A DNA stretch of 64,000 nt from an uncultured Syntrophaceae bacterium (GCA_964585095.1 CAZPCN010000011.1:9367-73366), one strand, 5' to 3'; shown: positions 4,036 through 48,772, counted from the stretch's first letter. Notes: generated from the sequence alone by a model not told the origin. Made by a program: numbers and translations.

Positions 4036-4070
4036 GGGTCTCGGGTCACGGGGATAGGGTCTAGGGCACA
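4036..4070 (+). repeat. GGGTNNN heptad array, 5 units (gggtctc gggtcac ggggata gggtcta gggcaca)
   Basis: Read directly. It starts 2 nt after the M50 protease stop (4031-4033). It is the left arm of an inverted pair. Confidence 0.9.
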
Positions 4071-4109
4071 AAGGTACAGAAGAAATTTAGAAACGAATTC
4101 TGCTTCCTT

Positions 4110-4141
4110 CCCGATACCCGATACCCTAAACCCGATACCCC
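4110..4141 (-). repeat. GGGTNNN heptad array, 4 units on the minus strand (gggtatc gggttta gggtatc gggtatc)
   Basis: Read directly. It starts 4 nt after the radC stop (4146-4148) on radC's sense strand. It is the right arm of the inverted pair, and the two arms flank a 39-nt AT-rich core. Confidence 0.9.
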
Positions 4142-4145
4142 TTTC

Positions 4146-4829
4146 TCAGAGGATGCCCTCCTCCCGGAAGCTGAAGAATCGGTTCTCGCCCACGATGAGG
4201 TGGTCGTGCAGCGCGATGTCCATGATGCGCGCCGCGTCCTGGAGGACCCTCGTGAGGCGGATGTCCGCGTCGGAGGGGCGTACGTGGCCCGAGGGGTGGT
4301 TGTGGACGAGGATGATGGCCGAGGCCTTGTGCGCGAGGGCCTTTTCGAGGACCTTGCGGGGGTAGACGACGGCCTGGTTCACGATGCCTTCCTGGATCGT
4401 CTCCACCCGGATGATGCGGTTGCGGGCGTTGAGGTAGATGACGGCGAAGTGCTCGTCCTTCAGGCCGCCCATGGACGAGAGACAGTAGTCGATCAGCTCC
4501 CTCGTCGAGGAGATCTGTTCGTGCTCCTCGGCCCTCTGCCGCAGGGTGAGGGACCCGACATCGCGAACGACGCGGAAGAGGGTGGCGGCGTGGGGGCCGA
4601 TCCCCGGGGTTGCCAGCAGGGCCTCGCGGTCGGCGTCGAGCACCCCCTTCAGGGAGCCGAAGCGCTTGAGAAGCTCCTTCGCCAGGGGCTTCACGTCCCT
4701 GCGGGGCAGGGCGTAGAACAGCAACAGTTCCAGGACCTCGTAATCCTGCAGGCCTGCGACGCCCGCCCGTTCGAACCGGGCTTTCAGCCTGTCGCGGTGT
4801 CCCAGGTGGTGGGGGCCGTCGGGGGTCAT
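4146..4829 (-). CDS. radC: RadC-like JAB/JAMM domain protein (UPF0758)
   Basis: The 227-aa product has an N-terminal HhH region (GHRDRLKARF...LQDYEVLELLLFYALPRRDVKPLAKELLKRFGSL) and the JAMM motif HNHPSGHVRPSDADIRLT. Confidence 0.85.
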   Translation of the reverse strand: MTPDGPHHLGHRDRLKARFERAGVAGLQDYEVLELLLFYALPRRDVKPLAKELLKRFGSLKGVLDADREALLATPGIGPHAATLFRVVRDVGSLTLRQRAEEHEQISSTRELIDYCLSSMGGLKDEHFAVIYLNARNRIIRVETIQEGIVNQAVVYPRKVLEKALAHKASAIILVHNHPSGHVRPSDADIRLTRVLQDAARIMDIALHDHLIVGENRFFSFREEGIL

Positions 4830-4856
4830 CGTCGATGCTATCCTCCGGGGTTTCCG

Positions 4857-5702
4857 TCAGTGTTTCAGTCTGAACAGCCGCACGCCCACAACCGACAGGA
4901 GGTAAGCCGCCCCTGCGATCACGATGATCGTCGCCCCGGCGGGCAGGTTGGGGCCGTAGCTCAGCGCAAGCCCGGTCGTCGTAAACGCGACGGTGAGCAG
5001 GGCCGACAGCAGCATCATGTGCCAGAGCCGTTTCGTGAATTCGCCGGCGACGGCGGCGGGAAGCGTGATGATGGCGATGACCATGATGATCCCCACGATG
5101 GTGACGAGCAGCACGACGGTGAGGGCGGTCATGCAGAGAAGGAGCAGGTAGAACCCTTCGACCCGGATCCCCCGGAGCCGGGCGAATTCCTCGTCGAAGC
5201 AGATGGCGAGGAACTGGTTGTAGAAAAGCGCGGCGGCGATCACGACGAGAAGATCCAGGCCGGCGATCAGCCACAGGTCCTGGGCGGAGACCATCAGGAT
5301 GCTCCCGAAGAGGTAGCTCATCAGGTCCTCGTTGTAGCCGGGCGTCTGGGAGATGAACAGGATTCCCGCAGCCATGCCCACGGCCCAGAGGGCGCCGATC
5401 ACGGTGTCCTCGCGCTGCCGCGCCTTCATGCTGACCAGCCCGATGGCGAGCGCCGCGATCAGGGAGGCCAGGACGGCGCCGTAGAGGGGCTCGAACCAGT
5501 CCCAGCCGTGAACCACCTGGAAGTAGCGCGCGGCCCCGAGACCGCCCAGAACGGTGTGGGAGATGCTCCCCGCGATGTAGCTGATCTTCCGGGTGACGAC
5601 GTAGCTGCCGATGATCCCGCAGGCGACGCTCGCGAGCACCCCGGCGAGCAGGGCATGCTGCAGGAACGGGTATCGCGGCAGGTCCGTCAGGAATTCTCCC
5701 AT
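4857..5702 (-). CDS. znuB: metal (Zn/Mn-type) ABC transporter permease
   Basis: The 281-aa hydrophobic product belongs to the ABC-3 family (FLQHALLAGVLASVACGIIGSYVV). It lies in an operon with the ATPase, the binding protein and Zur. Confidence 0.8.
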   Translation of the reverse strand: MGEFLTDLPRYPFLQHALLAGVLASVACGIIGSYVVTRKISYIAGSISHTVLGGLGAARYFQVVHGWDWFEPLYGAVLASLIAALAIGLVSMKARQREDTVIGALWAVGMAAGILFISQTPGYNEDLMSYLFGSILMVSAQDLWLIAGLDLLVVIAAALFYNQFLAICFDEEFARLRGIRVEGFYLLLLCMTALTVVLLVTIVGIIMVIAIITLPAAVAGEFTKRLWHMMLLSALLTVAFTTTGLALSYGPNLPAGATIIVIAGAAYLLSVVGVRLFRLKH

Positions 5703-5718
5703 GGGTTGTTCCCTTCTC

Positions 5719-6459
5719 TCATCCGTCCCGGTGATGGTGCCGGACCATGCAGACGTCGGACAGGTAGAGATCCCGGATGACCTCGCCCGTCACGGTTGCG
5801 GTCGGGTGAACCAGGACCCGGCGATTGACGCACACCACGCTCTGAACGTACTGGGAAACGAATCCCAGGTCGTGGCTGACCACGATCACCGTGATCGTTT
5901 TGCTCATCTCGTGGAGCAGCTCGAAGAGCTCCGTTTCCACCACCATGTCCACGTTTGCCGTCGGTTCGTCGAGGAACAGCATCTGCGGTTCCGAGGCCAG
6001 GGCCCGGGCGATGAGCACCCGCTGGCGCTGTCCGCCGGACAGGGCCATGAACGGCCGGCCGGCAAGGTCCTGCATCTCGAGCTTCCGCAGCGCATCGAGG
6101 GCAATGGCCCGGTCCGTGCGGCTGTACGGGCCGATTCGCCCTCCCGGTCCCAGGCGCCCCATGAGGACGACATCGAGAACGCTCACGGGAAACTGCAGGT
6201 CGAGCTGGACCTGCTGGGGCATGTACCCGATGCGGGTCCGCGCCTTCTCGGGGGGCATCCCCAGGACCTCGAGGGTCCCTTGCGAAGGCCGGAGCAGGCC
6301 CAGCATGAGCTTCAGCAGGGTCGTCTTGCCGCCCGCATTGGGCCCGACGATCGAGATGAACGACCGTTCCTGGATCGTGAAATGGACATCCTCCAGGACG
6401 GGGATCCCGTCGTAGGAAAACGACACGTGGCTGGCCTTGACGACGTCCCTGGGATTCAT
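5719..6459 (-). CDS. znuC: metal ABC transporter ATP-binding protein
   Basis: It has Walker A GPNAGGKTTLLK, the ABC signature LSGGQRQRVLIARAL and Walker B LFLDEP. Confidence 0.85.
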   Translation of the reverse strand: MNPRDVVKASHVSFSYDGIPVLEDVHFTIQERSFISIVGPNAGGKTTLLKLMLGLLRPSQGTLEVLGMPPEKARTRIGYMPQQVQLDLQFPVSVLDVVLMGRLGPGGRIGPYSRTDRAIALDALRKLEMQDLAGRPFMALSGGQRQRVLIARALASEPQMLFLDEPTANVDMVVETELFELLHEMSKTITVIVVSHDLGFVSQYVQSVVCVNRRVLVHPTATVTGEVIRDLYLSDVCMVRHHHRDG

Positions 6460-6465
6460 GGCTCC

Positions 6466-7371
6466 TCAGCGCAGGCCCTGCTCGACGGCAGAGGCAATGG
6501 TTTCGAGGTTCGCGAGGTATTCCCTCGAGAGCGGATTGATCGGGACCACGGCGCCCCCGATCGACGTCGCCACCACCGCGGCGCTCTTGCTCGAGAATTG
6601 CGGCTGCACGAAGATCACCCGGACGCCGTCCGCCCGTGCCCTGTCGATCAGGTCGGCCAGCTGCCTGGCCCCCGGTTCCTTCCCCTCGATCTCGATGGGG
6701 ACCTGGATCAGCCCGTAGGCGTCCGCGAAATATCCGAAGGCGGGGTGAAACACGTACATCTTCCGGCCCTGGAGAGGGGCGAGCGAGCGGGCAATGCGGG
6801 CATCCACCCGGTCCAGATCGTCCTGGAAGGCCTTCAGGTTCAGGGCGTACTGCTGCGAGTGTGCCGGGTCCAGGCGGCACAGGGCGTCGTGGATGTTCCG
6901 CGCCACGATCTTCGCGAGCCTCGGCGACATCCAGATGTGGGGATCGTGCGTTGCCGCGCCCCTACCGGCCCGCCGGTGTCCGTGGCTGTGCCCGTCTTCG
7001 CCGTGGTCGTGTCCGGCAAGGGTGCGCGTGGGGACCCCTTTCTGCGTCTCGACGAGGAGCAGGTTCCTGTGGGAGCGGCCGATCTTCTTCGTCAGGCCCC
7101 GTTCGAACCCGACCCCGATGAGGAAGAGGCCCCGGGCCTCGCTGAGCCTGGCCATCTGCTTCGGCGTCGGCTCGTAGGCGTGCGGCGACTGTCCCTCGCC
7201 GACGAGAACCTCGACACGGACCCGGTCCCCGCCGATCCGCTCGAGAAAATAGGATTGCGGGAGGATGCTGACAAACACGGTCATCCGGGATGGCTCGACC
7301 TCTCCCCACGCGGTCTGCCAGAAAGCGGCGACGAGCACCGCGATCAGGATCGTCATCGCGCCTTTTTTCAT
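6466..7371 (-). CDS. znuA: periplasmic metal-binding protein with His-rich loop (ZnuA-like)
   Basis: The start is the internal ATG at 7371 (MKKGAMTILIAVLVAAF signal peptide). The product has a cluster-9 SBP fold and a His-rich loop, GHDHGEDGHSHGH, typical of Zn-specific members. Confidence 0.8.
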   Translation of the reverse strand: MKKGAMTILIAVLVAAFWQTAWGEVEPSRMTVFVSILPQSYFLERIGGDRVRVEVLVGEGQSPHAYEPTPKQMARLSEARGLFLIGVGFERGLTKKIGRSHRNLLLVETQKGVPTRTLAGHDHGEDGHSHGHRRAGRGAATHDPHIWMSPRLAKIVARNIHDALCRLDPAHSQQYALNLKAFQDDLDRVDARIARSLAPLQGRKMYVFHPAFGYFADAYGLIQVPIEIEGKEPGARQLADLIDRARADGVRVIFVQPQFSSKSAAVVATSIGGAVVPINPLSREYLANLETIASAVEQGLR

Positions 7372-7853
7372 GGAGAACTCCTTCTTTCCCCAGGATGGCC
7401 TTTCAGACGACCGGCCGGATTCCGGCCGATTTCTTTCCGGCACCGGCGGCACAATCCCGTGAAGTGGATGGCGACGGTCTCGATGGTCTCTTCCGCCGTC
7501 CGATACTCCCGAAGCCACCGCTCCTGGTTTCCCGCCGTGGGCAGGCAGGCGAGGCTCCGGCAGGCGCGGCAGTAGAAATGGGGGTGCGTCGGGTTGTGCC
7601 GGCAGGCCATTTCGAAGAAGTTCTCCCCGTGGTCCGTCGCGATTTCCCGGATGATGCTGCCGGCCTTGAAGGATGCCAGGATTCGGTAGACCGTGACCTT
7701 GTTGATCCGGCTCTCTCCGGACACCCGCTGAAGGATGTCCCGGGCGCTCAGCGGCGTCTCCGCGTGCACGAGCGCCGTCAGCACCGCTAGGCGCTGGGAC
7801 GTCTTCGAAAGGCCCGCCCGTTCCAGGGTGGTGTGGATGTCGCAGTGTCCCAT
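7368..7853 (-). CDS. zur: Fur-family transcriptional regulator, probable Zur
   Basis: The start is the ATG at 7853 (MGHCDIHTTLERAGLSKTSQRLAVLTAL). The product has two CxxC pairs (CRACRSLAC, CRRC). Its stop overlaps the znuA start in an ATGA overlap. Confidence 0.7.
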   Translation of the reverse strand: MGHCDIHTTLERAGLSKTSQRLAVLTALVHAETPLSARDILQRVSGESRINKVTVYRILASFKAGSIIREIATDHGENFFEMACRHNPTHPHFYCRACRSLACLPTAGNQERWLREYRTAEETIETVAIHFTGLCRRCRKEIGRNPAGRLKGHPGERRSSP

Positions 7854-7871
7854 GGAAACACCATACAATAG

Positions 7872-7888
7872 ATGCAACTCGTTTGCAA
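7872..7888. promoter_or_regulatory. candidate Zur operator (imperfect palindrome ATGCAAC-tcg-TTTGCAA)
   Basis: It lies 19-35 nt upstream of the zur ATG, in the zur/ccdA divergent region, and contains the perfect 10-nt palindrome GTTTGCAAAC (7881-7890). From memory it resembles the ATGCAAC-N3-GTTGCAT Zur signal proposed for Desulfovibrio. I have not verified this. Confidence 0.35.
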
Positions 7889-7972
7889 ACAGTTTCCCCT
7901 CCCCGCCGTCCCGCGCTTGCGCGTCCCCCCGAATTGCGTTATGGAGGGGCAGGACGAACGCGGAGGGGCGGA

Positions 7973-8677
7973 ATGGTCGAACAGCTCGCAGCGCAATTCG
8001 AAGTCCATCTCGGGCATTCATTCCTGCTGGCCTATGCGGCGGCATACCTGGCCGGCGTCCTGGTCAGCTTCACCCCCTGCGTCTATCCCGTCGTCCCGAT
8101 CACGGCGGCCGTGATCGGCGCGCAAGGCGGGGTATCGGCCGGCAGGGGATTTGCGCTCTCGCTGAGTTTTGTCCTGGGACTGGCGGTCACCTACACGGCC
8201 ATCGGGATGTTCGCGGCCCTGACGGGGAGGCTCTTCGGTTCGATCCAGGCGAGCCCCCTGACGCAGGGCGCGCTCGGCGTCCTCTTCGTCCTCATGGGGC
8301 TCGCCATGCTGGAGGTCTTCCACCTTTCGCTCGAGCGCTTCATCCCGCGTCCCCGGGCGGGGGCGGGGCGCAAGGGGATCGTCGGGAGCTTTGCGATCGG
8401 GCTGACCTCGGGCTTCCTGTTGGGCCCCTGCACGGCCCCCGTGCTGGCCGTGATCCTTGGCGTGGTGGCCGCGCGGCAGAGCGTGTTCTTCGGCGGGTCG
8501 CTGCTGTTTGTCTTCTCCTTCGGCGTGGGCACGCTTCTCATTCTCGTCGGCACCTTTACGGGCATCCTGGCCGGTCTTCCGAAGTCGGGCGCCTGGATGA
8601 CGGGCGTGAAAAAAATCTCGGGCGTCGTCCTGCTTGCCGCCGGCGCATATTTTCTGTACAGTGCCCTCATCCACTAA
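7973..8677 (+). CDS. ccdA: cytochrome c biogenesis/thiol-disulfide transporter CcdA (DsbD family)
   Basis: The start is the internal ATG at 7973. The membrane protein carries the two conserved Cys motifs FTPCVYPVVP and LLGPCTAPVLA. Confidence 0.8.
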   Translation: MVEQLAAQFEVHLGHSFLLAYAAAYLAGVLVSFTPCVYPVVPITAAVIGAQGGVSAGRGFALSLSFVLGLAVTYTAIGMFAALTGRLFGSIQASPLTQGALGVLFVLMGLAMLEVFHLSLERFIPRPRAGAGRKGIVGSFAIGLTSGFLLGPCTAPVLAVILGVVAARQSVFFGGSLLFVFSFGVGTLLILVGTFTGILAGLPKSGAWMTGVKKISGVVLLAAGAYFLYSALIH

Positions 8678-8695
8678 GCGAGAGGTTCCGATCCG

Positions 8696-9196: not shown

Positions 9197-9223
9197 CAGC
9201 TTCACCCGCTCCGCATTTTTCCA

Positions 9224-9251
9224 TTGCTTTTCCCCCGATACCTGTATATTT
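9224..9251 (+). promoter_or_regulatory. candidate promoter of the feoB operon
   Basis: TTGCTT (9224-9229), 15-16 nt spacer, TATATT (9245-9250). A Fur box follows immediately. Confidence 0.35.
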
Positions 9252-9256
9252 TGAGA

Positions 9257-9273
9257 ATGCGAATCATTCGCAT
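9257..9273. promoter_or_regulatory. Fur box (ATGCGAAT-c-ATTCGCAT)
   Basis: It is a perfect 8-1-8 inverted repeat. The 19-mer GAGAATGCGAATCATTCGC matches 14/19 positions of the classical GATAATGATAATCATTATC consensus. It lies between the -10 element and the feoB start. Confidence 0.6.
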
Positions 9274-9284
9274 GAGGAGCACTC

Positions 9285-11264: not shown

Positions 11265-11274
11265 GGAGAGAAAC

Positions 11275-12000: not shown

Positions 12001-12015
12001 CGGGAGGACCGGACG

Positions 12016-12417: not shown

Positions 12418-12450
12418 GGTCCCCGAAATCGGGATCGAAAGGAGCGGGAC

Positions 12451-13041: not shown

Positions 13042-13046
13042 AACAA

Positions 13047-13081
13047 GGGTATCGGGGCTGGGGTCAAGGGTATAGGGCAAG
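13047..13081 (+). repeat. GGGTNNN heptad array, 5 units (gggtatc ggggctg gggtcaa gggtata gggcaag)
   Basis: Read directly. It starts 5 nt after the stop at 13039-13041. It is followed by the SD (AGAGGAG) and the ATG at 13106. Confidence 0.9.
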
Positions 13082-14307: not shown

Positions 14308-14321
14308 GGGTACAGGGTGTG
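14308..14321 (+). repeat. short GGGTNNN array, 2 units (gggtaca gggtgtg)
   Basis: Read directly. It starts 2 nt after the aminopeptidase stop (14303-14305). Confidence 0.6.
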
Positions 14322-14377
14322 ATCCCTTAGAGGATCCGTTCCGCGACAAGATGGGATCGTGAGGTGAGGCTCGCCAT

Positions 14378-14728: not shown

Positions 14729-15286
14729 ATGAACGTCGACAAACTCGTTCCCAAGGAGCCCCGGGGGCTCGTCGTCGTCATCACGGGCCACGGCAAGGGG
14801 AAGACCACGACGGCGCTGGGGATAGCCGTGAGGGCCTGCGGGCACGGCATGCGCATCTGCATCATCCAGTTCATGAAGGGCGACCTGTATTCCGGCGAGT
14901 GGGACGGCGTGAAGAAGATGGACTGCGCCATCGAGCTGCACGCCACGGGGAAGGGGTTCTGCGGCATCCAGGGCAACCCCTACCCGTACCGCGAGCACCG
15001 GCAGAACGCCCAGGACGCCGTTGCCCTGGCCCGGGAGAAAATGGTCTCGGGGAACTACGACCTGATCATCCTCGACGAGATCCACAACGCGCTGCACCTG
15101 AAGCTCGTGGACCTCGAGCAGGTCCTCGCCCTGATCCGGGAGAAGCCGCCGCTCACGCACCTGGTCCTGACGGGACGGGACGCGCACCCGGAGGTCATCG
15201 AGCTTGCCGATACGGTGAGCGAGGTGGTGGAAATCAAGCACGCGTACAGGAAGGGAATCGAACCCCAACCGGGCATCGACTATTGA
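14729..15286 (+). CDS. cobO: cob(I)yrinic acid a,c-diamide adenosyltransferase
   Basis: It has the P-loop HGKGKTTTALGIAVRACGHG, IIQFMKG and ILDE. It is 185 aa, typical of CobO/BtuR. Confidence 0.85.
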   Translation: MNVDKLVPKEPRGLVVVITGHGKGKTTTALGIAVRACGHGMRICIIQFMKGDLYSGEWDGVKKMDCAIELHATGKGFCGIQGNPYPYREHRQNAQDAVALAREKMVSGNYDLIILDEIHNALHLKLVDLEQVLALIREKPPLTHLVLTGRDAHPEVIELADTVSEVVEIKHAYRKGIEPQPGIDY

Positions 15287-15320
15287 ACGGATGATGACCG
15301 GGGGCACAGCCCGCAGGCAA

Positions 15321-15359
15321 GAGAAGGTGAGAGGGTAAGAAGGGAAGAGGGTCAGAAGG
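15321..15359 (+). repeat. purine-rich short-period array (gagaaggtgagagggtaagaagggaagagggtcagaagg)
   Basis: Read directly. GG(G)T recurs every 7-9 nt. It lies 35 nt after the cobO stop and is followed by a GGCTTC...GAAGCC hairpin (15358-15377). Confidence 0.6.
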
Positions 15360-15456
15360 CTTCAGATGCCGGAAGCCGACCACTACGCGGGAGTCTGCCT
15401 ATCTGGATTTGCACGTCTTGTGGCTTGAGGCCTGCGGCTCTTTCGGCGGAATCCCC

Positions 15457-17515: not shown

Positions 17516-17540
17516 CGGGACCGTCCGCGAGGGACGGTCC

Positions 17541-17575
17541 GGGTCCAGGGTTCAGGGGACAGGGTCCAGGGCAAG
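17541..17575 (+). repeat. GGGTNNN heptad array, 5 units (gggtcca gggttca ggggaca gggtcca gggcaag)
   Basis: Read directly. It lies between a 9-bp hairpin (17518-17540) that follows the sufB stop and the terminator at 17585. Confidence 0.9.
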
Positions 17576-17584
17576 ACAAGAGTC

Positions 17585-17617
17585 GGGTCGGGGAGATATC
17601 CCCGGCCCGCTTTTTTT
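17585..17617 (+). terminator. intrinsic terminator after sufB/D
   Basis: The stem gggtcgggga/tccccggccc has a GATA loop and is followed by a T7 run (17611-17617). Confidence 0.7.
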
Positions 17618-17675: not shown

Positions 17676-18476
17676 ATGATCCCGGGGCTTCTCGATCCGG
17701 TGCGGGAAATCCTCGACACCCTCTGCGCCGTGTCCGGCAAGGGGGTTCAGGCCGTCCTGAGGCCGGACCTCAAATCGCTCGCCCGCTTGCGGATGGCCGG
17801 TCCGGGTACGCAGACCCACGTGCTCTTCCACCGCGGCGACGACAATCCCGTCGTCAACCACGTGATCGCCAACGAGTGCGGCCACCTGATCCGTCTCTTC
17901 GCCGCTCCCCCCGAGAAACGGAGGGTGGCCGTGGCCAACGAGCGGACCCGGTCGCTGTACCACGGGGAGATCCGCGAGGACATCCAGCGTCTCTCCCTGA
18001 TCCACGGGATCGGAACGCTGGGCGAGTTCCTGCCTCTGTGGTACGAGAGCGTCGTCTTCCAGCTCACGAGGATGCCCCCGGACATCGCGATCGAGCGGTG
18101 GCTTCACCGCGAATACCCCGGTTTGAGGGCGGTCCAGCGGATGGCTCTCATGGAGCAACAGGCCAAGGCGGCCGCGGTGCTCTCGCGGGGAATCCGGCGG
18201 ATGACGCCGCGCAAGGTCTACGACGTCTCGCAGGCCATGAATCACGCCTTCTTCAGACTCATGGAACCCCTGGCGGGGGTCGACCTGACGGCGCCCTACG
18301 AGCGGAGCCTCTACGTCCTGCAGGGCGAGGAGCTTGCGGCGCAGGCGGATCGGAACGCGCGCGACGATCATGAAGGGGACGTGGAGCTGACCCGGCAATG
18401 GGCCGAGTCCCTGGCCCTGTCGGGGTGGATCGAGTGGCGCCGACTCGACGAGGTCGAGACGGGAACGCTCCACTGA
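17676..18476 (+). CDS. hypothetical protein (266 aa)
   Basis: It is a long ORF with genome-typical codon usage. I recognise no family. It contains HVIANECGHLIR, a degenerate HExxH-like string. Confidence 0.6.
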   Translation: MIPGLLDPVREILDTLCAVSGKGVQAVLRPDLKSLARLRMAGPGTQTHVLFHRGDDNPVVNHVIANECGHLIRLFAAPPEKRRVAVANERTRSLYHGEIREDIQRLSLIHGIGTLGEFLPLWYESVVFQLTRMPPDIAIERWLHREYPGLRAVQRMALMEQQAKAAAVLSRGIRRMTPRKVYDVSQAMNHAFFRLMEPLAGVDLTAPYERSLYVLQGEELAAQADRNARDDHEGDVELTRQWAESLALSGWIEWRRLDEVETGTLH

Positions 18477-18487
18477 CGGGACGGAGG

Positions 18488-18501
18488 GTGCCGATCGGCA
18501 C
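18488..18501. terminator. 14-nt perfect palindrome between convergent genes (GTGCCGATCGGCAC)
   Basis: Read directly. There is no U-tract, so it is only a weak bidirectional terminator candidate. Confidence 0.25.
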
Positions 18502-18528
18502 GAGGAGGAAGGGCTTCCGCGGGCGGCC

Positions 18529-22849: not shown

Positions 22850-23380
22850 TCAGGTCAGCTTCCCCAGCTCTTCCGAAAAGAGATCGAACATCGGCTTCCC
22901 GAACAGCACGAATCGCACCCGTTCGATCTCGGGGTGGTCCTTCAGGTACTCGACGGCCGTCCGGAGGGCGATGCGGGCGGCGTCGTTCAGCGGGTAGCCG
23001 TAGGCGCCCGTGCTGATGGCCGGGAAGGAGACGCTCTTCAGGCCCCTCTTCGAGGCGAGCTTCAGGCTTTCGAGGTAGGCGCTCTTCAGCAGCCCCGCCT
23101 CGTTCCGGTTCCCGCCGTTCCACACCGGCCCCACCGTGTGGATGACGTATCGGGCCTTGAGGTTGCCGCCCGTGGTGATCACCGCCTGTCCCGTGGGGCA
23201 GCGGCCGATCGCCCGGCACTCCTCCATGATGGCCGGGCCCCCGGCGCGGTGGATCGCACCGTCGACGCCGCCTCCCCCGCGCAGGCCCGAGTTGGCCGCG
23301 TTCACGATGGCGTCGGTTTCCTCCTTCGTGATGTCGCCCTCGACGACGGCCAGCGTGGCATTCCCTATCTTGACCTCCAT
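22850..23380 (-). CDS. macro-domain protein (O-acetyl-ADP-ribose deacetylase-like)
   Basis: The start is the ATG at 23380. The product carries GDITKEETDAIVNAANSGLRGGGGVDGAIHRAGG and SFPAISTGAYGYP. Confidence 0.85.
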   Translation of the reverse strand: MEVKIGNATLAVVEGDITKEETDAIVNAANSGLRGGGGVDGAIHRAGGPAIMEECRAIGRCPTGQAVITTGGNLKARYVIHTVGPVWNGGNRNEAGLLKSAYLESLKLASKRGLKSVSFPAISTGAYGYPLNDAARIALRTAVEYLKDHPEIERVRFVLFGKPMFDLFSEELGKLT

Positions 23381-23396: not shown

Positions 23397-23431
23397 TGAA
23401 CCCTATACCCTGTACCCGAACCCCTATACCC
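23397..23431 (-). repeat. GGGTNNN heptad array, 5 units on the minus strand (gggtata ggggttc gggtaca gggtata gggttca)
   Basis: Read directly. The first unit covers the last two codons and the TAG stop of the phosphoglycerate mutase. The array ends 16 nt before the macro-domain ATG. Confidence 0.9.
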
Positions 23432-25157: not shown

Positions 25158-25520
25158 ATGCTCGAAAAAGCGGGAATTTATCACTGCATGAGGAAGTCGG
25201 CCTGGGAGAAAACCCAGGAAGAGATATTCAAGGAACGGGCCGAGGTTCTCGGCCGCGCGGGGGAAGCGCTGGCGGCCGCGCTTTCCGAGGTGGACAGGAT
25301 CGACCGGCTGATCGTCGAGAGCGTGCGGACGGCCGGAGAGAGGCCCGGACTGGAGGCCCTGGCGGAGATCAACGGCGAAATCCGGCTCTACAACCGGGCC
25401 CGGGCATATGCCGAGTTGCGCTACTACTACCTCATCGTGACCCGGGAAGCCATGGGAATACGGCGCCACAAGGCCGTCGAGGAAATCTACCGGATCCCTC
25501 CGAAGAGAAAATATCTTTGA
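25158..25520 (+). CDS. hypothetical protein (120 aa, predicted helical)
   Basis: The ORF has genome-typical codon bias. I recognise no family. The SD is weak. Confidence 0.45.
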   Translation: MLEKAGIYHCMRKSAWEKTQEEIFKERAEVLGRAGEALAAALSEVDRIDRLIVESVRTAGERPGLEALAEINGEIRLYNRARAYAELRYYYLIVTREAMGIRRHKAVEEIYRIPPKRKYL

Positions 25521-25560
25521 ACAGCCGGTGACCGGGGCGACACCTTTGAGAACGGATCTG

Positions 25561-25601
25561 GAGGGCGAGAGGGTGAGAAGGTGAGAAGGTGACAAGGTCG
25601 G
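25561..25601 (+). repeat. octamer array (gagggcg agagggtg agaaggtg agaaggtg acaaggtc gg)
   Basis: Read directly. AGGTGAGA-type units have an 8-nt period. The array is flanked by the inverted 10-mers GAGAACGGAT (25548-25557) and ATCCGTTCTC (25645-25654). Confidence 0.7.
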
Positions 25602-26397: not shown

Positions 26398-26495
26398 GGA
26401 GACGGGAAGCTGAGAAGTTGTGAAGCTTGGAGAGGCCGAAAGCCAATCGCACAATATCCTCTTCTCCGAGCTTCATAACTTCCTAACTTCCATCC
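26398..26495. repeat. GAAGYT octamer-array hairpin element (copy 1)
   Basis: The left arm is ggagacgggaagctgagaagttgtgaagcttggagagg. The right arm is cctcttctccgagcttcataacttcctaacttccatcc. The arms are imperfectly complementary, with a 22-nt loop. The right arm contains the 21-mer CTTCATAACTTCCTAACTTCC (26471-26491), which is identical to 51104-51124. Confidence 0.8.
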
Positions 26496-27669: not shown

Positions 27670-27697
27670 GGGTATCGGGTATAGGGTCTCGGGTATC
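27670..27697 (+). repeat. GGGTNNN heptad array, 4 units (gggtatc gggtata gggtctc gggtatc)
   Basis: Read directly. It starts 5 nt after the nlpD stop (27662-27664). Confidence 0.9.
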
Positions 27698-27721: not shown

Positions 27722-27750
27722 TTGACGGATGAGAGTGTGATGCCTATACT
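27722..27750 (+). promoter_or_regulatory. candidate sigma70 promoter of the radical SAM gene
   Basis: TTGACG (27722-27727), 17 nt spacer, TATACT (27745-27750). Confidence 0.5.
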
Positions 27751-37646: not shown

Positions 37647-37688
37647 GGGTATTGGGGATAGGGTATCGGGTATCGGGTATCGGGTGTG
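37647..37688 (+). repeat. GGGTNNN heptad array, 6 units (gggtatt ggggata gggtatc gggtatc gggtatc gggtgtg)
   Basis: Read directly. It starts 6 nt after the rfbD stop (37638-37640). Confidence 0.9.
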
Positions 37689-39536: not shown

Positions 39537-39575
39537 GGGTTCAGGGGACAGGGTCCAGGGTCCAGGGTACAGGGG
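39537..39575 (+). repeat. GGGTNNN heptad array, 5 units plus GGGG (gggttca ggggaca gggtcca gggtcca gggtaca gggg)
   Basis: Read directly. It starts 5 nt after the mutL stop and abuts the miaA ATG at 39576, so it fills the whole spacer. Confidence 0.9.
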
Positions 39576-40493
39576 ATGGAAGAGAAGCCGAGGATTGTCA
39601 TTGTTCTCGGGCCGACGGCCGTCGGCAAGACGGACCTTTCCCTGGACCTGGCGTCTGAATTCAACGGCGAGATCGTCAGCGCCGATTCCATGCAGGTATA
39701 CCGCCATCTCGACATCGGAACCTCGAAACCCTCGCCGCAGGAGCGCCAGAGGGTCCCCCACCACCTCATCGACGTCGTGAGCCCCGACGAGGAGTTCAGC
39801 GCGGCCCGCTTCCGCGAGACGGCGGGCGGCATCATCGGGGACCTCGAAGGCCGGAAGGCCGTCTTCGTCGTCGGGGGAACGGGACTCTATGTCCGCGCCC
39901 TCACGGGGGGGCTGATCGAAGGCCCCGATGCGGTTCTCCGGAGCAGCTACCGCGAAGCCATGGAGCGGGAGGATCGCGAATGCCTCCACGGCAGGCTCCG
40001 GCAGCTCGATCCCCGGGCGGCCGAGCGGATCCACCCGTGCGACAGGGTCCGGATCGTCCGGGCGCTGGAGACGGTCGAGCTGACCGGGGAGCCGATCTCG
40101 GAGAAGCAGAGGCGACACGGCTTCCGCGACATCCGATACGAGGCCCTCAAGATCGGTCTCTACCGCGACAGGGAGGAGCTGTACCGCCGCATCGACAGCC
40201 GGGCCGCGCAGATGGTCGAGGGGGGCCTGATCGGGGAGACCGAGAAAATTCTAGGCATGGGCTATACAGAAAAACTAAAACCGTTGCAGACACTTGGCTA
40301 CCGATACTTCATCCGGTACTTGAAAGGAGGCATGGCCCTCGAAGAGGCCCTTCGGTCCATGCAGCGCGACACCCGCCACTACGCCCGCCGCCAGATGACC
40401 TGGTTCAGGGGCGAAGGAGGAATCGAGTGGTTTCACCCCGGTGAAGCCGGGGCGATCCGGGAGCGCATCGAGCGATTCCTCCACGGCCGCTGA
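39576..40493 (+). CDS. miaA: tRNA dimethylallyltransferase
   Basis: It has the P-loop GPTAVGKT, SADSMQVYRHLDIGTSKP and RQMTWFR. Confidence 0.9.
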   Translation: MEEKPRIVIVLGPTAVGKTDLSLDLASEFNGEIVSADSMQVYRHLDIGTSKPSPQERQRVPHHLIDVVSPDEEFSAARFRETAGGIIGDLEGRKAVFVVGGTGLYVRALTGGLIEGPDAVLRSSYREAMEREDRECLHGRLRQLDPRAAERIHPCDRVRIVRALETVELTGEPISEKQRRHGFRDIRYEALKIGLYRDREELYRRIDSRAAQMVEGGLIGETEKILGMGYTEKLKPLQTLGYRYFIRYLKGGMALEEALRSMQRDTRHYARRQMTWFRGEGGIEWFHPGEAGAIRERIERFLHGR

Positions 40494-43297: not shown

Positions 43298-43300
43298 TCA

Positions 43301-43335
43301 GGGTTCAGGGGCCAGGGTTCAGGGTACAGGGGAGA
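43301..43335 (+). repeat. GGGTNNN heptad array, 5 units (gggttca ggggcca gggttca gggtaca ggggaga)
   Basis: Read directly. It starts 3 nt after the valS stop and ends 6 nt before the nadC ATG. Confidence 0.9.
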
Positions 43336-43341
43336 ATCGGA

Positions 43342-44184: not shown

Positions 44185-44187
44185 GCG

Positions 44188-44976
44188 ATGGACGTCAACG
44201 TCGAAGAGCTCAGGCGCTATTTCCAGTCGAAGACCATCGGCCGGAGGGTCGAGTTCCGCGAGGAAACCGGATCGACGAACACCGAGGCGCTGCGCCTGGC
44301 CCTCGACGGGACGCCCGAGGGGACCGTCGTCCTGGCCGACGCGCAGTCCCAAGGCCGGGGACGGCTGGACCGTGCCTGGGAATCGCCGCCCTCGAAGAAC
44401 CTCTACCTCTCCGTTGTCCTTCGGCCCGACATCCCCGCCGCGTCGTCGTCGCTCATCCCGCTGATGACCGGCGTAGCCGTCGCGGATGTGGTCTCGCAGT
44501 ACTGCCCGGGGCGGGTGCGGCTCAAGTGGCCCAACGACGTCCTCGTCGGCGGGCGGAAGATCTGCGGCATGCTGACGGAGATGCGGACCAGGGGGAACCG
44601 AGTCCACTTTCTCATTGTCGGCGTCGGGCTGAACGTCAACATGGGTCGACTCGATTTCCCGCGCGAGCTCCGCGAGACGGCCACGTCTTTGAAGATCGAA
44701 ACGGCCTGCGAGCTCGACCGGTTCGACGTTGCCGTACGCCTCTTCGAAGCCCTGGAGCGATGGTACCGCATCTTCCTGGGCGGGGGGCAGGAGGCGATCC
44801 GGGAGACCTGGCTGCGGGTTGCCGACATCGTCGGGAAGCGGGTCGAGGTAGTTTTCAAGGAAACGATCCAGCGGGGCGCCGTCACGGGTCTCGACGAAAA
44901 CGGGGCGCTCCTGCTGGAAGGGGAATCCGGTCCGCAGAGAGTGCTGGCCGGGGATGTCTATATCGAGAGGTTGTGA
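44188..44976 (+). CDS. birA: biotin--[acetyl-CoA-carboxylase] ligase (class I, no HTH domain)
   Basis: It carries [29 protein letters not shown] and GVGLNVN. It is 262 aa. Confidence 0.85.
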
Positions 44977-44978
44977 CC

Positions 44979-45749
44979 ATGCTTCTGGCAATCGATGTGG
45001 GAAACAGCAACACCGTCCTGGGGCTCTACGACGGCGACAAGCTCATCTACGACTGGCGCATCCGAACCGTGGCCAACCACACGGTCGACGAGTACGGGAT
45101 GCTGATCGTGAACCTCTACAAGACCGTCAAGACGAGCGCGAGGCCGGTGACCCTGACGGGCATCATCATCTCCTGCGTCGTCCCGCCCATGCTGAACATC
45201 CTGGAGCCCCTCTGCAAGAAGTACTTCGGTCTCAAGCCCCTCATCGTGGAGCCCGGGATCAAGACCGGCATGCCCATCTTCTACGACAACCCGAAGGAGG
45301 TCGGCGCCGACCGGATCGTCAACGCCGTTGCGGCGTACGAGAAATTCAAGACCGAGCTGATCGTCGTGGACTTCGGCACGGCGACCACCTTCGACTACGT
45401 CTCGAAGAAGGGCGAGTACATGGGGGGCTGCATCACGCCCGGCATCGCCATCTCCAGCGACGCGCTCTTCGACAAGGCCTCCAAGCTGCCTCGCGTAGAG
45501 CTCAAGAGGCCCCGGACGATCATCGCGAAGGACACGATCAGCAGCATGCAGGCGGGGATCATGTTCGGCTACGCGGGACTTGTCGACGGGATCGTCGACC
45601 GGATGAAGGCCGAGACCCGCACGAACCCGAAGGTCGTGGCCACGGGGGGGCTCGCCAAGATCATCGCGCCGGAGACCCGAAGCATCGACGTTGTCGACGA
45701 GTTCCTGACCCTCGACGGGCTTCGCATCATCTTCGAGAGGAACAAGTAG
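44979..45749 (+). CDS. coaX: type III pantothenate kinase
   Basis: The ATG at 44979 gives [15 protein letters not shown]. It also carries DFGTATTFD and [11 protein letters not shown]. Confidence 0.9.
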
Positions 45750-45807
45750 CCCTGCCGACCCGCGCGGCGGGATTCGGCCCGACCGGCGGATAACGGGGGT
45801 GTGTCCC

Positions 45808-48045
45808 ATGGCCTTCGAGCACCTGAACAAGAAACAGCTTCTCCAGAAGATGGAGGCCCTCCGTCTGGAGGTGATGGAGTACGAGAAGCAGGAGAGCGAG
45901 AAGCTCTACGAGGAGAAGCTCTACCGATCGCTGGCCGTCACCGCCGAAGCGGGCGTCTACATCATCAAGGACGGGGTGTTCCGTTTCGTCAACCAGTTCA
46001 CGGCGTCGAGGCTGGGGTGCCGTCCCGCGGAGCTCATCGGGCAGAAGGCCTCCGACTTCGTCCATCCCGACGACCGCGAGGCGGTCGCGAAGATGGCCAG
46101 GGACATGCTCCGCGGCAGGCGCGCTCAGCCTTACGAGTTCCGGACCGTCGGCAAAGACGGGCGGGTCCACTGGATCCTCGAGTCCGCCACCTCTATCGAT
46201 TTCGGCGCGGGCCGCGCCGTGCTCGGGCAGTCGATGGACGTCACCCGGCAGGTCGAGGCCCGGGAGCGCCTGGCCCGGCTCGAAGCCCTCGAGGCGTCGA
46301 TCCTCGAGTCGATCCCCCACGCCGTGATCGGCCTGAAGAACCGGCAGATCATCTTCGCCAACGACGGCGTCGAGAAGGTCTTCGGCTGGAAGCGCGAGGA
46401 GGTCATCGGCCGGAGCACCCGGATCTTCTACCGCACCAGGAAGGAGTGGGCCGTCGGGGCGGACAACCTCTACCGCTCCCTGGAGACGCAGCGGACCTTC
46501 ACCGCCGAGGTCCAGCGCAAGAGAAAGGACGGCGCGCCCATCGTCTGCCGCCTCACGGCGTCCCGAATCGGCCCCGCGCTCGTCGACAAGCAGGTGGTCA
46601 TCACCTACGAGGACATCACGGACCAGAAAGCGGCCGAGGAAGTCTACATGACCATGGCCGAGAGCTCCCAGGTCGGGGTGTACGTGGTGCACGGCGGGAC
46701 GTTTCTCTACATCAACACCATCGGGGCGGCCTACGCCGGCTACCGCGCCGACGAGCTGATCGGCGCGAGTTCCCTGAAGCTCGTTCATCCCGACGACCGG
46801 GCCCTGGTCTCCAAGAGGGCCAGGGCGATGCTGCGGGGCAGGGGACGCACCCCCAACGTGTTCCGGATCCTGACGAAGGACGGCCAGGTGCGGTGGATCA
46901 TGGAAACGGTGACGCCGATCCGATTCCAGGGGAAAAAGGCCATCCTCGGCAACTCGATGGACATCACGGAGCAGAAGGAGGCGCAGGGCAAGCTCGCGGA
47001 GCTCGAAGCCCTCGAGGCGTCGATCCTCGAGTCGATCCCGCACGCCGTGGTCGGGTTGAGGGACCGGAAGATCTTCTTCGCCAACGACGGCGTCGAGAAG
47101 GTCTTCGGCTGGAAACCGAAGGACCTGATCGGCCGGGGGAAAAGGCTCCTGTTCCTCTCGGACTCGGAATTCGAGGTGATCGCCCAGCTGCTCTACTCCA
47201 CGCTGGAGAGGCGACGGACGTTCGCCGTCGAGTACCCCTGCTGCAAGAAGGACGGCGCCGAAGTGCAGTGCATGATCAGCGCGGCGCGCATCGGGGAGCG
47301 GCTGGAGCACGACAGCATCGTGATCACCTTCGAGAACATCACGTACCGCAAGCAGTTCGAGAAGGAGCTCGAGCTCTCCCGCGGGAGGCTGCGCGACCTC
47401 TCGATGCACCTCCAGACGGTGCGTGAGAAGGAGAGGACGCGCATCGCGCGCGAACTCCACGACGAGCTGGGGCAGCTCCTGACGGCGCTCAACACGGGCG
47501 TCATCCTGCTGCGCAAGAAGATCCCGTCCGACCAGGAGCACCTCCTGGAGAGGACGCTGTCGATGAAGGAACTCATCGACATGACCATGCAGACCGTCAA
47601 GCGGATCTACATGGACCTCCGGCCCGGCATGCTCGACCACCTGGGGCTGCCCGCGGCGATCGAGTGGCAGTGCCAGGAGTTCCAGAAACGGACGGGCATC
47701 CAGTGCTCCATCGTCGTGGATCCCGAGGACATGGAGCCCAACAAGGACGCCTCCATCACCGTCTTCCGCATCCTCCAGGAGACGCTCACGAACGTGGCCA
47801 AGCACTCGAAGGCGACCCGCGTGCAGGTGAGTCTCAAGGGGCTGGAGGACGATCTGGAACTCGCGGTGTCGGACAACGGCAGGGGCATCCGCGACGGGGA
47901 TCTCCAGAAGCCGAAATCGTTCGGGCTGCTGGGGGTCCGGGAGCGGGTGGATTTCCGCGGCGGCGAGGTGCACATCTCCGGCAGGAAGGGGAAAGGGACG
48001 ACGGTAACGGTGCGTCTGCCGGCCTGGAGAGGAGGCGAGACATGA
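45808..48045 (+). CDS. four-PAS sensor histidine kinase (HisKA_3/NarX-type)
   Basis: It has an N-terminal coiled coil, four PAS units in an A-B-A'-B' pattern, the H-box ARELHDELGQLLTAL and a C-terminal HATPase domain (DNGRGI, GLLGVRERV). Confidence 0.85.
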   Translation: MAFEHLNKKQLLQKMEALRLEVMEYEKQESEKLYEEKLYRSLAVTAEAGVYIIKDGVFRFVNQFTASRLGCRPAELIGQKASDFVHPDDREAVAKMARDMLRGRRAQPYEFRTVGKDGRVHWILESATSIDFGAGRAVLGQSMDVTRQVEARERLARLEALEASILESIPHAVIGLKNRQIIFANDGVEKVFGWKREEVIGRSTRIFYRTRKEWAVGADNLYRSLETQRTFTAEVQRKRKDGAPIVCRLTASRIGPALVDKQVVITYEDITDQKAAEEVYMTMAESSQVGVYVVHGGTFLYINTIGAAYAGYRADELIGASSLKLVHPDDRALVSKRARAMLRGRGRTPNVFRILTKDGQVRWIMETVTPIRFQGKKAILGNSMDITEQKEAQGKLAELEALEASILESIPHAVVGLRDRKIFFANDGVEKVFGWKPKDLIGRGKRLLFLSDSEFEVIAQLLYSTLERRRTFAVEYPCCKKDGAEVQCMISAARIGERLEHDSIVITFENITYRKQFEKELELSRGRLRDLSMHLQTVREKERTRIARELHDELGQLLTALNTGVILLRKKIPSDQEHLLERTLSMKELIDMTMQTVKRIYMDLRPGMLDHLGLPAAIEWQCQEFQKRTGIQCSIVVDPEDMEPNKDASITVFRILQETLTNVAKHSKATRVQVSLKGLEDDLELAVSDNGRGIRDGDLQKPKSFGLLGVRERVDFRGGEVHISGRKGKGTTVTVRLPAWRGGET
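46279..46391 (+). repeat. intragenic direct repeat, copy 1 (start of PAS unit B)
   Basis: It is about 90% identical by eye to 47002-47114, offset by 723 nt. Two blocks are perfectly identical (38 nt at 46279-46316, 39 nt at 46353-46391). Confidence 0.85.
47002..47114 (+). repeat. intragenic direct repeat, copy 2 (start of PAS unit B')
   Basis: See copy 1. The identical blocks are 47002-47039 and 47076-47114. Confidence 0.85.
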
Positions 48046-48674
48046 TCAAGATCCTCATCGCCGACGATCACCCCATCGTGAGGCAGGGGTTCAAGCAGGT
48101 CCTCTCGGAGACGGCGGACCTCGTGGTGGCCGACGAAGCGGGAAACGGCCAGGAGGTGCTCTCCCTGGTCGGCCGCAAGGACTACGACGTGATCCTGCTG
48201 GACATCTCCATGCCGGGCAAGAACGGGCTCGAGGTGCTCAAGGAGCTGAGGATCGCGAACCCGAAGATCCCCGTCCTGATCCTGAGCATCTACCCCGAGG
48301 AGCAGTACGCCATCCGCGCCCTGAAGGCCGGGGCCTCCGGCTATCTCACGAAGGCCAGCGCCCCCGAGGAACTCATTTCGGCCATCCGCAAGGTCTCGCG
48401 GGGCGGGAAGTACATCAGCTCTTCCCTGGCGGAAAAGCTTGCCTACGAACTCGACGGCGATGCGGAGAAGGCCCCCCACGAAACGCTTTCGGACCGCGAG
48501 TACCAGATCCTCCTCATGATCGCCTCGGGGAAGACCGTTTCCGACATCGCCGAGGAGATGTGCCTCAGCGTCAAGACGGTGAGCACCTACCGCTCGCGGA
48601 TCCTGGACAAGATGAAGCTGAAGAACAACGCGGAGCTCACGACGTACGCGATCCGGAACAAGCTGGTAGAATAG
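48042..48674 (+). CDS. NarL/FixJ-family response regulator
   Basis: The ATG overlaps the kinase stop (ATGA). It carries MIKILIADDHPIVRQG, a DISMPGKNG receiver domain and a LuxR HTH (LSDREYQILLMIASGKTVSDIAEEMCLSVKTVSTYRSRIL). Confidence 0.9.
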   Translation: MIKILIADDHPIVRQGFKQVLSETADLVVADEAGNGQEVLSLVGRKDYDVILLDISMPGKNGLEVLKELRIANPKIPVLILSIYPEEQYAIRALKAGASGYLTKASAPEELISAIRKVSRGGKYISSSLAEKLAYELDGDAEKAPHETLSDREYQILLMIASGKTVSDIAEEMCLSVKTVSTYRSRILDKMKLKNNAELTTYAIRNKLVE

Positions 48675-48708
48675 GGTCTAGGGGCTCGGGTATAGGGTCT
48701 GAGGGACG
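48674..48708 (+). repeat. GGGTNNN heptad array (gggtcta ggggctc gggtata gggtctg agggacg)
   Basis: Read directly. The first G is the last base of the response-regulator TAG stop. It is the left arm of an inverted pair. Confidence 0.9.
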
Positions 48709-48740
48709 AAGAATTTGTTATAGATGAAATCTTATTCCAT

Positions 48741-48772
48741 CCCGATACCCTAGACCCGATACCCGATACCCC
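48741..48772 (-). repeat. GGGTNNN heptad array, 4 units on the minus strand (gggtatc gggtatc gggtcta gggtatc)
   Basis: Read directly. It is the right arm of the inverted pair around a 32-nt AT-rich core (48709-48740). It ends 15 nt before the ferredoxin ATG. Confidence 0.9.

Follow-up and report, generated by a model that had tools for sequence, protein, structure and literature searches.

Short tandem repeats whose seven-nucleotide units begin with three guanines were defined as a class by Rehm et al. (2015, PLoS One 10:e0144275; PMC4692102), based on GGGAATC/GGGNATC heptamers in Xanthomonas and GGGGA(C/T)T heptamers in Nostoc. These repeats prefer four units, are intergenic in 89-93% of cases and lie near an open reading frame (ORF) on their 5' side, including, on the coding strand, overlaps with its stop codon; 70-75 convergent inverted pairs occur per genome, and two Xanthomonas species use the same sites, with variation in length and sequence. 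Most copies are transcribed, K+-dependent formation of G-quadruplexes (G4s) has been seen by circular dichroism, and G4-capable repeats in Xanthomonas coincided more often than control repeats with the start or stop of a transcript; no function was identified (PMC4692102). Here we analyse arrays of GGGTNNN heptads in a 64,000-nucleotide stretch of DNA from an uncultured Syntrophaceae bacterium (GCA_964585095.1, CAZPCN010000011.1:9367-73366), hereafter the window. With high confidence we place them, as lineage-specific imperfect tandem heptamers, in the class of G4-forming heptameric repeats of Rehm et al. That the arrays are a striking, selected and clade-wide feature is a solid observation, and what is new is a Syntrophales lineage of the known class with a much stricter strand rule.

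Several other systems bear comparison with the arrays. The short tandemly repeated repetitive sequence STRR1 of heterocystous cyanobacteria, described by Mazel and colleagues in 1990, is said to be CCCCAGT, or ACTGGGG on the other strand. Like the arrays, STRRs are dispersed intergenic tandem heptamers, and the parallel drawn in a first-pass annotation of the window is apt because one G4-capable family, the Nostoc GGGGA(C/T)T heptamers, is placed in the same class by Rehm et al. Unlike the arrays, STRRs are largely perfect, often long, and in Anabaena favour the non-coding strand. They are delimited by taxon and by the cyanobacterial units CCCCAGT, TTGGTCA and CAACAGT; host and units differ here, and we therefore regard STRRs as an analogue. 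Repetitive extragenic palindromic (REP) sequences and bacterial interspersed mosaic elements (BIMEs) of enterobacteria resemble the arrays in being hundreds of short dispersed elements in 3' untranslated regions (UTRs) and intercistronic spacers, always co-transcribed with the upstream gene and often very near stop codons. Studies by Newbury in 1987 and by Liang, Rudd and Deutscher in 2015 reportedly found that REPs stabilise upstream mRNA and alter translation when they lie within ~15 nt of the stop. REPs differ in being imperfect hairpin palindromes linked to REP-associated tyrosine transposases (RAYTs); single arrays are not self-hairpin palindromes of ~35 nt, their G4 fold being lower in energy, and we do not count them as REP/BIME elements. 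The TAACTGA repeats of marine Beggiatoaceae (MacGregor 2015, PMC4679880) are likewise lineage-specific intergenic tandem heptamers, in 2-6 copies, which are gene-oriented, sometimes overlap the upstream stop and have been proposed to act post-transcriptionally, but they are not G-rich, have no predicted structure and lie just 5' of start codons. Finally, the hybrid or RNA G4 terminator at mitochondrial CSB II (a conserved sequence block; PMC3488243) shares with the arrays G tracts on the non-template strand that act via nascent RNA, but it is a single locus, serves a phage-type RNA polymerase and functions in primer formation for DNA replication.

RESULTS

GGGTNNN arrays directly follow stop codons

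A pattern search recovered all twelve arrays that the first-pass annotation had reported from the sequence alone, at the same positions and on the same strands (Table 1), and the longer ones were also recovered at period 7 by Tandem Repeats Finder. The pattern GGGN4GGGN4GGGN4GGG has 22 overlapping matches in the window, far above the 0.13 +/- 0.37 expected from 100 dinucleotide shuffles. Genes were mapped by codon statistics, and the map was checked with Pfam and with the gene calls of a metagenome contig of identical sequence (L001). On this map, all 12 arrays are intergenic and the G-rich strand is the sense strand of the gene ending just 5' in 11 of them, both as originally claimed; approximately one gene in six has a GGGTNNN run directly 3' of its stop. 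Coding sequences are free of arrays, as had been seen by eye, the single three-unit match within one (49672-49692) being at chance level, and none of the six divergent spacers contains an array.

Ten arrays adjoin a stop codon, starting within -8 to +6 nt of its end; the range first given, from 6 nt before to 6 nt after, was too narrow, because the array at 23431 begins 8 nt before the end of the stop. Were placement uniform within each spacer, the joint probability of the observed offsets would be ~1e-11. The overlap of the first unit with the stop at 23431 (where TAG lies within unit 1) and at 48674, and the exceptional position of the 17541 array behind a hairpin are as first described. The sole exception to the sense-strand rule in the window, at 48737-48772, lacks a gene upstream on its own strand and can be read as the C-rich arm of an inverted pair. 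The G4 motif rule (G3+ N1-7, four tracts) accommodates 11 of the 12 arrays, as had been stated for those with at least four tracts. The one that fails, at 14308, has just two units; since relatives have 4-7 G3 units at this site (or heptads without G3), we read it as the remnant of a 4-7 unit array, a qualification to the unit counts first given. No arrays were found in the 56.7-64 kb block, as had been noted, but this absence is not significant because the block has only five gene ends.

Units are imperfect and arrays are predicted to fold into G4s

The units follow the consensus GGG-T-[A/C/T]-[T/C]-[A/C], GGGTATC being the commonest in the window (11/44) and GGGTACA in the clade. Loop positions 5-7 are nearly free of G (2-6%). 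Units from different sites and species have T at position 4 in 77-82% of cases, so more than G3 is common to them. Units differ within and between arrays and no repeats flank them, in agreement with the proposal that they are not copies of one mobile sequence.

ViennaRNA with G-quadruplex energies placed a three-layer G4 in the minimum-energy fold of 11/11 arrays with at least four tracts, at -9 to -17 kcal/mol, which is 1-10 kcal/mol below the best hairpin. Single arrays lack palindromy, the hairpins open to them being weak (-2 to -13 kcal/mol), and their antisense RNAs are essentially unstructured (~0 kcal/mol). The 3' flanks are purine-rich, not U-rich. The two spacers that hold facing arrays are predicted to form long hairpins of -43 to -49 kcal/mol (4031-4146) and -46 to -51 kcal/mol (48672-48787), with z ~ -5 for each; such hairpins can form in either direction and, where both arms share one RNA, are predicted to outcompete the G4. 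One of these pairs lies between the convergent M50 peptidase and radC genes, a site at which facing arrays also occur in 8 relatives. Since true arm partners are generally no more complementary than chimeric arms (the exceptions are L069 and the response-regulator-ferredoxin pair of L204), the hairpin potential may be incidental to the facing arrangement of two arrays.

Arrays are conserved at orthologous gene ends throughout a clade

Searches with the M29 aminopeptidase of the window identified uncultured Syntrophales/Syntrophaceae metagenome-assembled genomes (MAGs) of the Thermodesulfobacteriota as its closest genome relatives: in 14 species the protein is 79-91% identical and in all others at most 63%, and the window protein itself is present, identical in sequence, on several metagenome contigs. 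We compared 341 kb from 15 related genomes (the clade set) with 775 kb from more distant relatives. The clade set contains 44 arrays with at least four tracts, all intergenic; 43 lie 3' of a same-strand gene, mostly at +2 to +6 nt. Period-7 GGG chains of 3, 4, 5, 6 and 7 tracts number 10, 17, 21, 5 and 1, respectively, while each of the other periods from 4 to 10 yields 9-20 three-tract chains and no more than a single chain with four tracts or above. Three-tract chains at period 7 are therefore at background level, and those of four or more form a clear family, of which no member was found in the 775 kb of more distant DNA. Of 80 G4 motifs in the clade set 49 are intergenic, and these are nearly all heptadic. 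At a density of ~1 array per 6-8 kb, a genome would contain several hundred of them.

Arrays recur at the same gene ends in relatives, as the first-pass annotation had suggested checking. A table of sites by species showed that the array-bearing gene ends of the window are usually array-bearing in relatives, and that its array-free gene ends never reach four tracts in any relative. At the valyl-tRNA synthetase (ValRS) locus of a sister species (92% identity, L204), arrays are found at the orthologous RmlD, MutL-MiaA and ValS ends; arrays are essentially lacking from the ValRS loci of 73% and 70% identity, and the 70% locus codes for exactly the valyl-tRNA synthetase annotated in Syntrophus aciditrophicus. 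Conservation of phase and G3 tracts with variable loops, an early claim, is borne out: G-tract positions are identical in relatives at 272/309 (88%) and loop positions at 170/328 (52%), an odds ratio of 6.8, in a comparison in which species pairs are not independent and alignment may favour G tracts. Arrays are gained and lost between species, and unit types turn over. Within the window's own species, six independent assemblies (99.84-99.97% identity) show no indel across six arrays, so that the arrays are not hypervariable contingency loci.

The arrays belong to a published class

The first-pass annotation knew of no description of this element; its class was published in 2015 (PMC4692102). 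Units of period 7 begin with GGG, and GGGTATC fits GGGNATC exactly, while the Xanthomonas-specific form GGGANTN fits only 2/179 units. The four-tract preference is evident in the chain lengths, the arrays are non-coding, on the coding strand and close to stops, and convergent inverted pairs and intergenic sites shared between related species occur in both settings. Further points of likeness to the Xanthomonas and Nostoc repeats are an intergenic share of ~90-100%, stop-codon overlap on the coding strand, rarity between divergent genes and the lack of any link to gene function. The host phylum is different, here Thermodesulfobacteriota (Syntrophales), position 4 is T instead of A or G, arrays mostly consist of units that differ from one another, five is the modal tract number, and there is no length variation between strains. 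Placement is also stricter: in Xanthomonas, G-rich arrays between aligned genes lie ~30-35% on each strand, a large share being antisense and upstream of starts, whereas here the ratio is 43 to 1, and the stop offset is 2-6 nt compared with a mean of 28 nt. Placement like that of 48737-48772, antisense and upstream of a start, is found in only 1/44 arrays, which is a difference in frequency and not in a defining feature. Judged by title and abstract, none of the six later papers found to cite Rehm et al. appears to address function. Literature searches with the exact heptamer strings, or for Syntrophales with G-quadruplex, returned nothing relevant, and in an Rfam scan of the window only four tRNAs reached the gathering score, the arrays matching no family.

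DISCUSSION

A tentative model for the arrays

What might a G4-capable array do immediately after a stop codon? We tentatively favour a model in which it is an RNA boundary element comparable to REPs, guarding the 3' end of the upstream cistron and limiting initiation downstream. The model builds on where the arrays lie and on which strand, on their tract numbers and conservation, and on the way they are predicted to fold, and it would have them fold in vivo and act on RNA ends and translation. Transcription would make the array the opening segment of the 3' UTR or intercistronic spacer, where it would fold into a compact three-layer RNA G4, or, where an inverted copy follows, into a long hairpin with that copy in place of the G4. 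The folded array would block 3'-to-5' exonucleases and thereby fix the 3' end of the upstream cistron or make it more stable. A good many arrays stand between cistrons, where they take up short co-directional spacers; others end transcription units. In the short spacers, to judge by the sequence, the last G tract must double as the putative Shine-Dalgarno site of the next gene, and folding would there limit independent initiation on that gene. With respect to transcription, the strand bias is equally compatible with a G4 in RNA and with one in the non-template DNA strand.

A bolder version of the model, in our estimation an unlikely one, is a ribosome-coupled, genome-wide punctuation by sense-strand RNA G4s, the folding of which would set transcript end or stability together with Shine-Dalgarno access. 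As the terminating ribosome's footprint covers the start of the array, folding would have to await release of the upstream cistron. Bacteria are said to avoid RNA G4s, a view associated with Guo and Bartel in 2016. Were the punctuation version true, it would amount to natural and widespread RNA G4 use in a bacterium, against that view; any action of RNA G4s here would already be a counter-example to the reported depletion.

A number of observations weigh against the boundary model. Function, if there is any, may not need a three-layer G4, because heptads without G3 are found after stops at orthologous or comparable sites. Depending on the species, the M29 gene ends in GGGTAYA, GGGCAAA, AGGCTAA or AGACGAA heptads, and the last two cannot form such a structure. 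Post-stop heptads lacking G3 lie at 11208-11275 in L010 and at ~11200-11235 in L011, L013, L014 and L067, the types seen in relatives being (AGACGAA)8, (AGGCTAA)3-4 and (AGGCTAC)3. In the sister species (L204), (AGGCTAA)3(AGGCTAC)3 spans the ispD stop, and a GGTAACA/CCTGTCA inverted pair occupies the response-regulator-ferredoxin spacer, where the window has its second inverted pair. The T at position 4, present in ~80% of units, is unexplained by G4 folding. The 17541 array lies just 5' of a canonical terminator hairpin that would already protect the 3' end, and arrays at +2-6 nt lie partly within the footprint of the terminating ribosome, a placement that a plain exonuclease barrier does not need. 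In Xanthomonas, furthermore, no regulatory role was found, and the C-rich strand is present in transcripts about as often as the G-rich one (PMC4692102). Selection for periodic G3 tracts, the interpretation offered at the outset, meets with complications: the T at position 4 is shared as well, and in relatives non-G3 heptads and an octamer hairpin are found at the same sites. This hairpin, built of octamer repeats and starting 3 nt past the stop, replaces the G array in the PK_C-M29 spacer of L007, L008 and L010; it fits a generic structured-boundary role and also cautions against a pure G4 reading. Together these sites point to a post-stop niche filled by compact structured or purine-headed repeats, most commonly, and by a wide margin, by the G4-capable heptad.

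Alternative explanations

We rank the REP-like boundary as most likely, followed by transcription termination, a neutral repeat, a protein-binding array and an antisense Rho site. In the first of these alternatives, which is rather unlikely, the arrays are terminators or attenuators: a G4 in the nascent RNA, or a DNA:RNA hybrid G4, would pause or release RNA polymerase and so end transcription units or set operon polarity in a GC-rich genome poor in hairpin/U-tract terminators. The arrays do lie where terminators are expected, for example on both sides of a convergent pair, and one of them stands 25 nt before a strong promoter-like site (27722-27750) with no other terminator between; in the 64 kb there are ~4-5 strong canonical terminators as against 11 arrays. 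Precedents are the termination by a G4 or hybrid G4 at mitochondrial CSB II (PMC3488243) and the transcript starts and stops at G4-capable repeats in Xanthomonas (PMC4692102). However, several arrays occupy spacers of 43-64 nt (as does the znuC-znuB array of relatives) in which the Shine-Dalgarno sequence or ATG of the next gene follows directly, so that there is no room for a new promoter past the array. The flank after the array is purine-rich rather than U-rich, the 17541 array has its own canonical terminator 3' of it, and in E. coli, according to a passage in PMC4824070, a terminator a few bp past a stop is almost fully repressed by the terminating ribosome. We rejected the idea that the arrays are intrinsic terminators, as none is among the hairpin/T-run sites of consensus scans and their flanks are purine-rich, and also that they are the sole replacement for missing terminators, as canonical hairpin/T-tract terminators exist in the window at 17584 (directly 3' of the 17541 array), 32848 and 35879.

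Could the arrays simply be tolerated? Non-functional or selfish heptamer simple sequence repeats (SSRs) arising by slippage might survive only where they are harmless, directly after stops and with mRNA carrying the G-rich strand, if selection acts against the C-rich orientation and against arrays in coding or divergent promoter regions; this is unlikely. It would account for the unit turnover, the gain and loss of arrays between species, the presence of non-G3 heptads and other repeats in the same niche and the lack of arrays in the 6 divergent spacers. Heptamers are also the dominant long SSR class in prokaryotes, according to statements in PMC4679880 and PMC4692102 that cite Mrazek, and many kinds of G-rich heptad SSRs are common in metagenome and viral contigs. 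Array lengths, on the other hand, are not geometric, but peak at 4-5 tracts, three-tract chains not being in excess and a long tail being absent, and an offset of 2-6 nt is far tighter than tolerance anywhere in a 3' UTR predicts. Nor does neutrality predict that imperfect units keep 88% of their G-tract positions and 52% of their loops between species at ~80-90% protein identity, that the same gene ends keep arrays across that distance, or that six assemblies show no length polymorphism.

An oligomeric protein that binds RNA or single-stranded DNA and reads GGGU/RGG at 7-nt spacing is, in our judgement, quite improbable, although such reading has parallels. HutP reads three UAG triplets 4 nt apart, and TRAP reads GAG/UAG repeats. 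A protein of this kind would explain why the 7-nt period is strict, so that intergenic G4 motifs are almost all heptadic, when the G4 rule permits loops of 1-7 nt, why unrelated sites share T at position 4, and why, at orthologous sites, heptads of the AGG or GG type have lost G4 capacity but still show the period and a purine head. Yet the analysis identified no candidate protein, a strict period is also expected if the arrays arose by tandem duplication, and the sharp four-tract minimum matches the requirement of a G4. Moreover, a G4-competent array at the PK_C-M29 site of L012 breaks the period, with loops of 4, 3, 3 and 4 nt.

It is very improbable that the antisense strand is the working one, the C/U-rich, G-poor stretch of ~50-60 nt that array and purine-rich flank make when read backwards loading Rho to stop antisense or convergent read-through: the antisense RNA is indeed unstructured and almost G-free, gene 3' ends are the entry point of antisense transcription, the read-through RNA of each gene of a convergent pair would meet the C-rich array of its partner, and the exception at 48737-48772 is C-rich on the + strand, but the arrays are short for a Rho utilisation (rut) site, the four-tract threshold and the 2-6 nt stop offset are left unexplained, and at inverted pairs the G arm would pair with and sequester the C arm. 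Two further candidates were rejected: a selenocysteine insertion sequence (SECIS) or other recoding signal, as the arrays follow TGA, TAA and TAG alike, and a phase-variation locus, as length polymorphism is absent and the arrays adjoin housekeeping genes.

What are the implications of the boundary model and its competitors? The role of G-rich heptamer repeats has been open since 1990 for cyanobacterial STRRs and since 2015 for the Xanthomonas GGGNATC repeats. The Syntrophales clade provides an unusually clean test case, in which the arrays keep almost strictly to the sense strand, begin 2-6 nt from the stop, have a sharp minimum of four tracts, conserve these tracts while the loops drift, and are stable in length between strains. 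The non-G3 heptads or hairpin at the same sites in relatives are natural contrasts, which make the G4, periodic-protein and neutral models directly comparable. For annotation, arrays can be used to mark true gene ends and operon junctions in MAGs of this clade.

Individual array sites

Table 1. Heptad arrays and adjoining elements in the window, with two sites of the sister-species contig. Offset, distance of the first G from the end of the stop codon (nt).
Feature	Coordinates	Strand	Offset	Context
Five-unit G array	4036..4070	+	+2	Past stop of M50 peptidase gene (3149-4033); G arm of inverted pair 1
Five-unit G array	4106..4141	-	+4	Past stop of radC (4146-4829, minus); second arm of inverted pair 1
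Five-tract array	13047..13081	+	+5	64-nt spacer between PK_C-domain gene (stop 13041) and M29 aminopeptidase gene (ATG 13106)
Two-unit remnant	14308..14321	+	+2	Past M29 stop codon
Hairpin, 9-10 bp	17517..17540	+		Between stop of SufD-like gene (17515) and 17541 array; conserved in L007
Five-unit array	17541..17575	+	+25	3' UTR of SufD-like gene, 5' of canonical terminator
Canonical intrinsic terminator	17584..17617	+		11-bp GC-rich stem and T7, 8 nt past 17541 array
Five-unit array	23397..23431	-	-8	Unit 1 includes TAG stop of phosphoglycerate mutase gene
Four-unit array	27670..27697	+	+5	Past stop of LysM/M23 peptidase gene
Six-unit array	37647..37688	+	+6	Past stop of RmlD-like gene
Six-tract array	39537..39578	+	+5	Fills 44-nt mutL-miaA spacer; miaA ATG (39576) abuts last GGGG
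Five-unit array	43301..43335	+	+3	Fills 44-nt valS-nadC spacer; last unit GGGGAGA 6 nt before nadC ATG
Array	48674..48708	+	-1	Overlaps TAG stop of LuxR-type response-regulator gene; G arm of inverted pair 2
Exception array	48737..48772	-		G-rich strand antisense; 16 nt 5' of ferredoxin gene 48788-48976 (+)
Non-G3 heptads (L204)	1429-1469			Sister species
Non-G3 heptads (L204)	18256-18343			Sister species

Individual sites differ in how widely they are retained. The 4036 array is kept in 9/11 relatives and the 13047 array in 8/11 syntenic relatives, the remaining three being those with the octamer hairpin. The 23397-23431 array, which fills a 43-nt spacer before a Macro-domain gene (22850-23380, minus), is conserved in L007 and L009. 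In the sister species, the 37647 array has an orthologous five-tract counterpart, and the mutL-miaA spacer has an orthologous array of the GGGACGA type. The promoter-like site following the 27670-27697 array is TTGACG-17-TATACT. Going by its sequence, GGGGAGA, the last unit of the 43301 array, is the predicted Shine-Dalgarno site of nadC, and in the znuC-znuB spacer of relatives the ATG lies 4 nt past the last tract.

Heptads outside the clade

A metagenome search with three GGGTVNN units followed by GGG matched at least 120 contigs, a mixture of mostly perfect and partly eukaryote-like repeats; among the matches listed, arrays adjoining ORF ends were on the same strand in 32 cases and on the opposite strand in 8. 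Contigs L084, L158, L170, L175 and L166 (GC content 0.39-0.57) have sense-strand GGGT heptads, imperfect or perfect, right after long ORFs. The post-stop habit may extend beyond the Syntrophales clade and beyond Xanthomonas and Nostoc. In IMG/VR, at least 120 viral contigs have five-tract GGGT heptads, with an unclear strand rule (29 versus 20), so that they are uninformative on a host gene-expression signal. These viral arrays (L207-L306, for example L286, L245, L250 and L229) are mostly perfect repeats, including telomere-like GGGTTTA in giant-virus bins, and the phage-like contigs L286 and L250 have imperfect post-stop arrays that resemble those of the window.

Other repeats and neighbouring features

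A second repeat family in the window consists of octamer hairpins with arms (GAAGYTGA)n and (TYARCTTC)n, at 26404-26492 and 51018-51128, the purine-rich arm coming first on the sense strand a few nt past the stop; their predicted minimum free energies as RNA are -63 and -40 kcal/mol, with z ~ -5.4. The family is also present just 5' of the M29 gene in L007, L008 and L010, exactly at the position of the 13047 G array. Purine-rich octamer arrays (GAGAAGGT)n adjoin stops at 15284-15365 and 25518-25600. They share a 5' box, TGAACnGnnGnTGACCGGGG, which starts at the stop codon, with ~75% of columns identical over the first 100 nt, and no stable fold is predicted for them (z ~ 0). The convergent spacer 18477-18528, between genes ending at 18476 (+) and 18529 (-), has four G3 tracts with irregular loops of 5, 21 and 7 nt, and contains neither a heptad array nor a terminator. 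At 56339-56696 lies a tRNA cluster (Arg-TCT, His, Arg-TCG, Lys-CTT), followed by the block at 56.7-64 kb, of slightly lower GC content (0.60-0.63), which codes for a DUF1254/DUF1214 protein, a sulfatase, a radical-SAM/SPASM maturase and a FadL-type porin; this array-free block may be an accessory island. Finally, a box, GATCCCTTAGAGGATCCGTTCCGCGACAAGATGGGATC, with a GATCCC/GGGATC inverted repeat at its ends, lies at 14321-14358 between the M29 gene and a convergent ferredoxin gene, and is conserved in L007, L012 and L015, directly 3' of the heptad arrays there.

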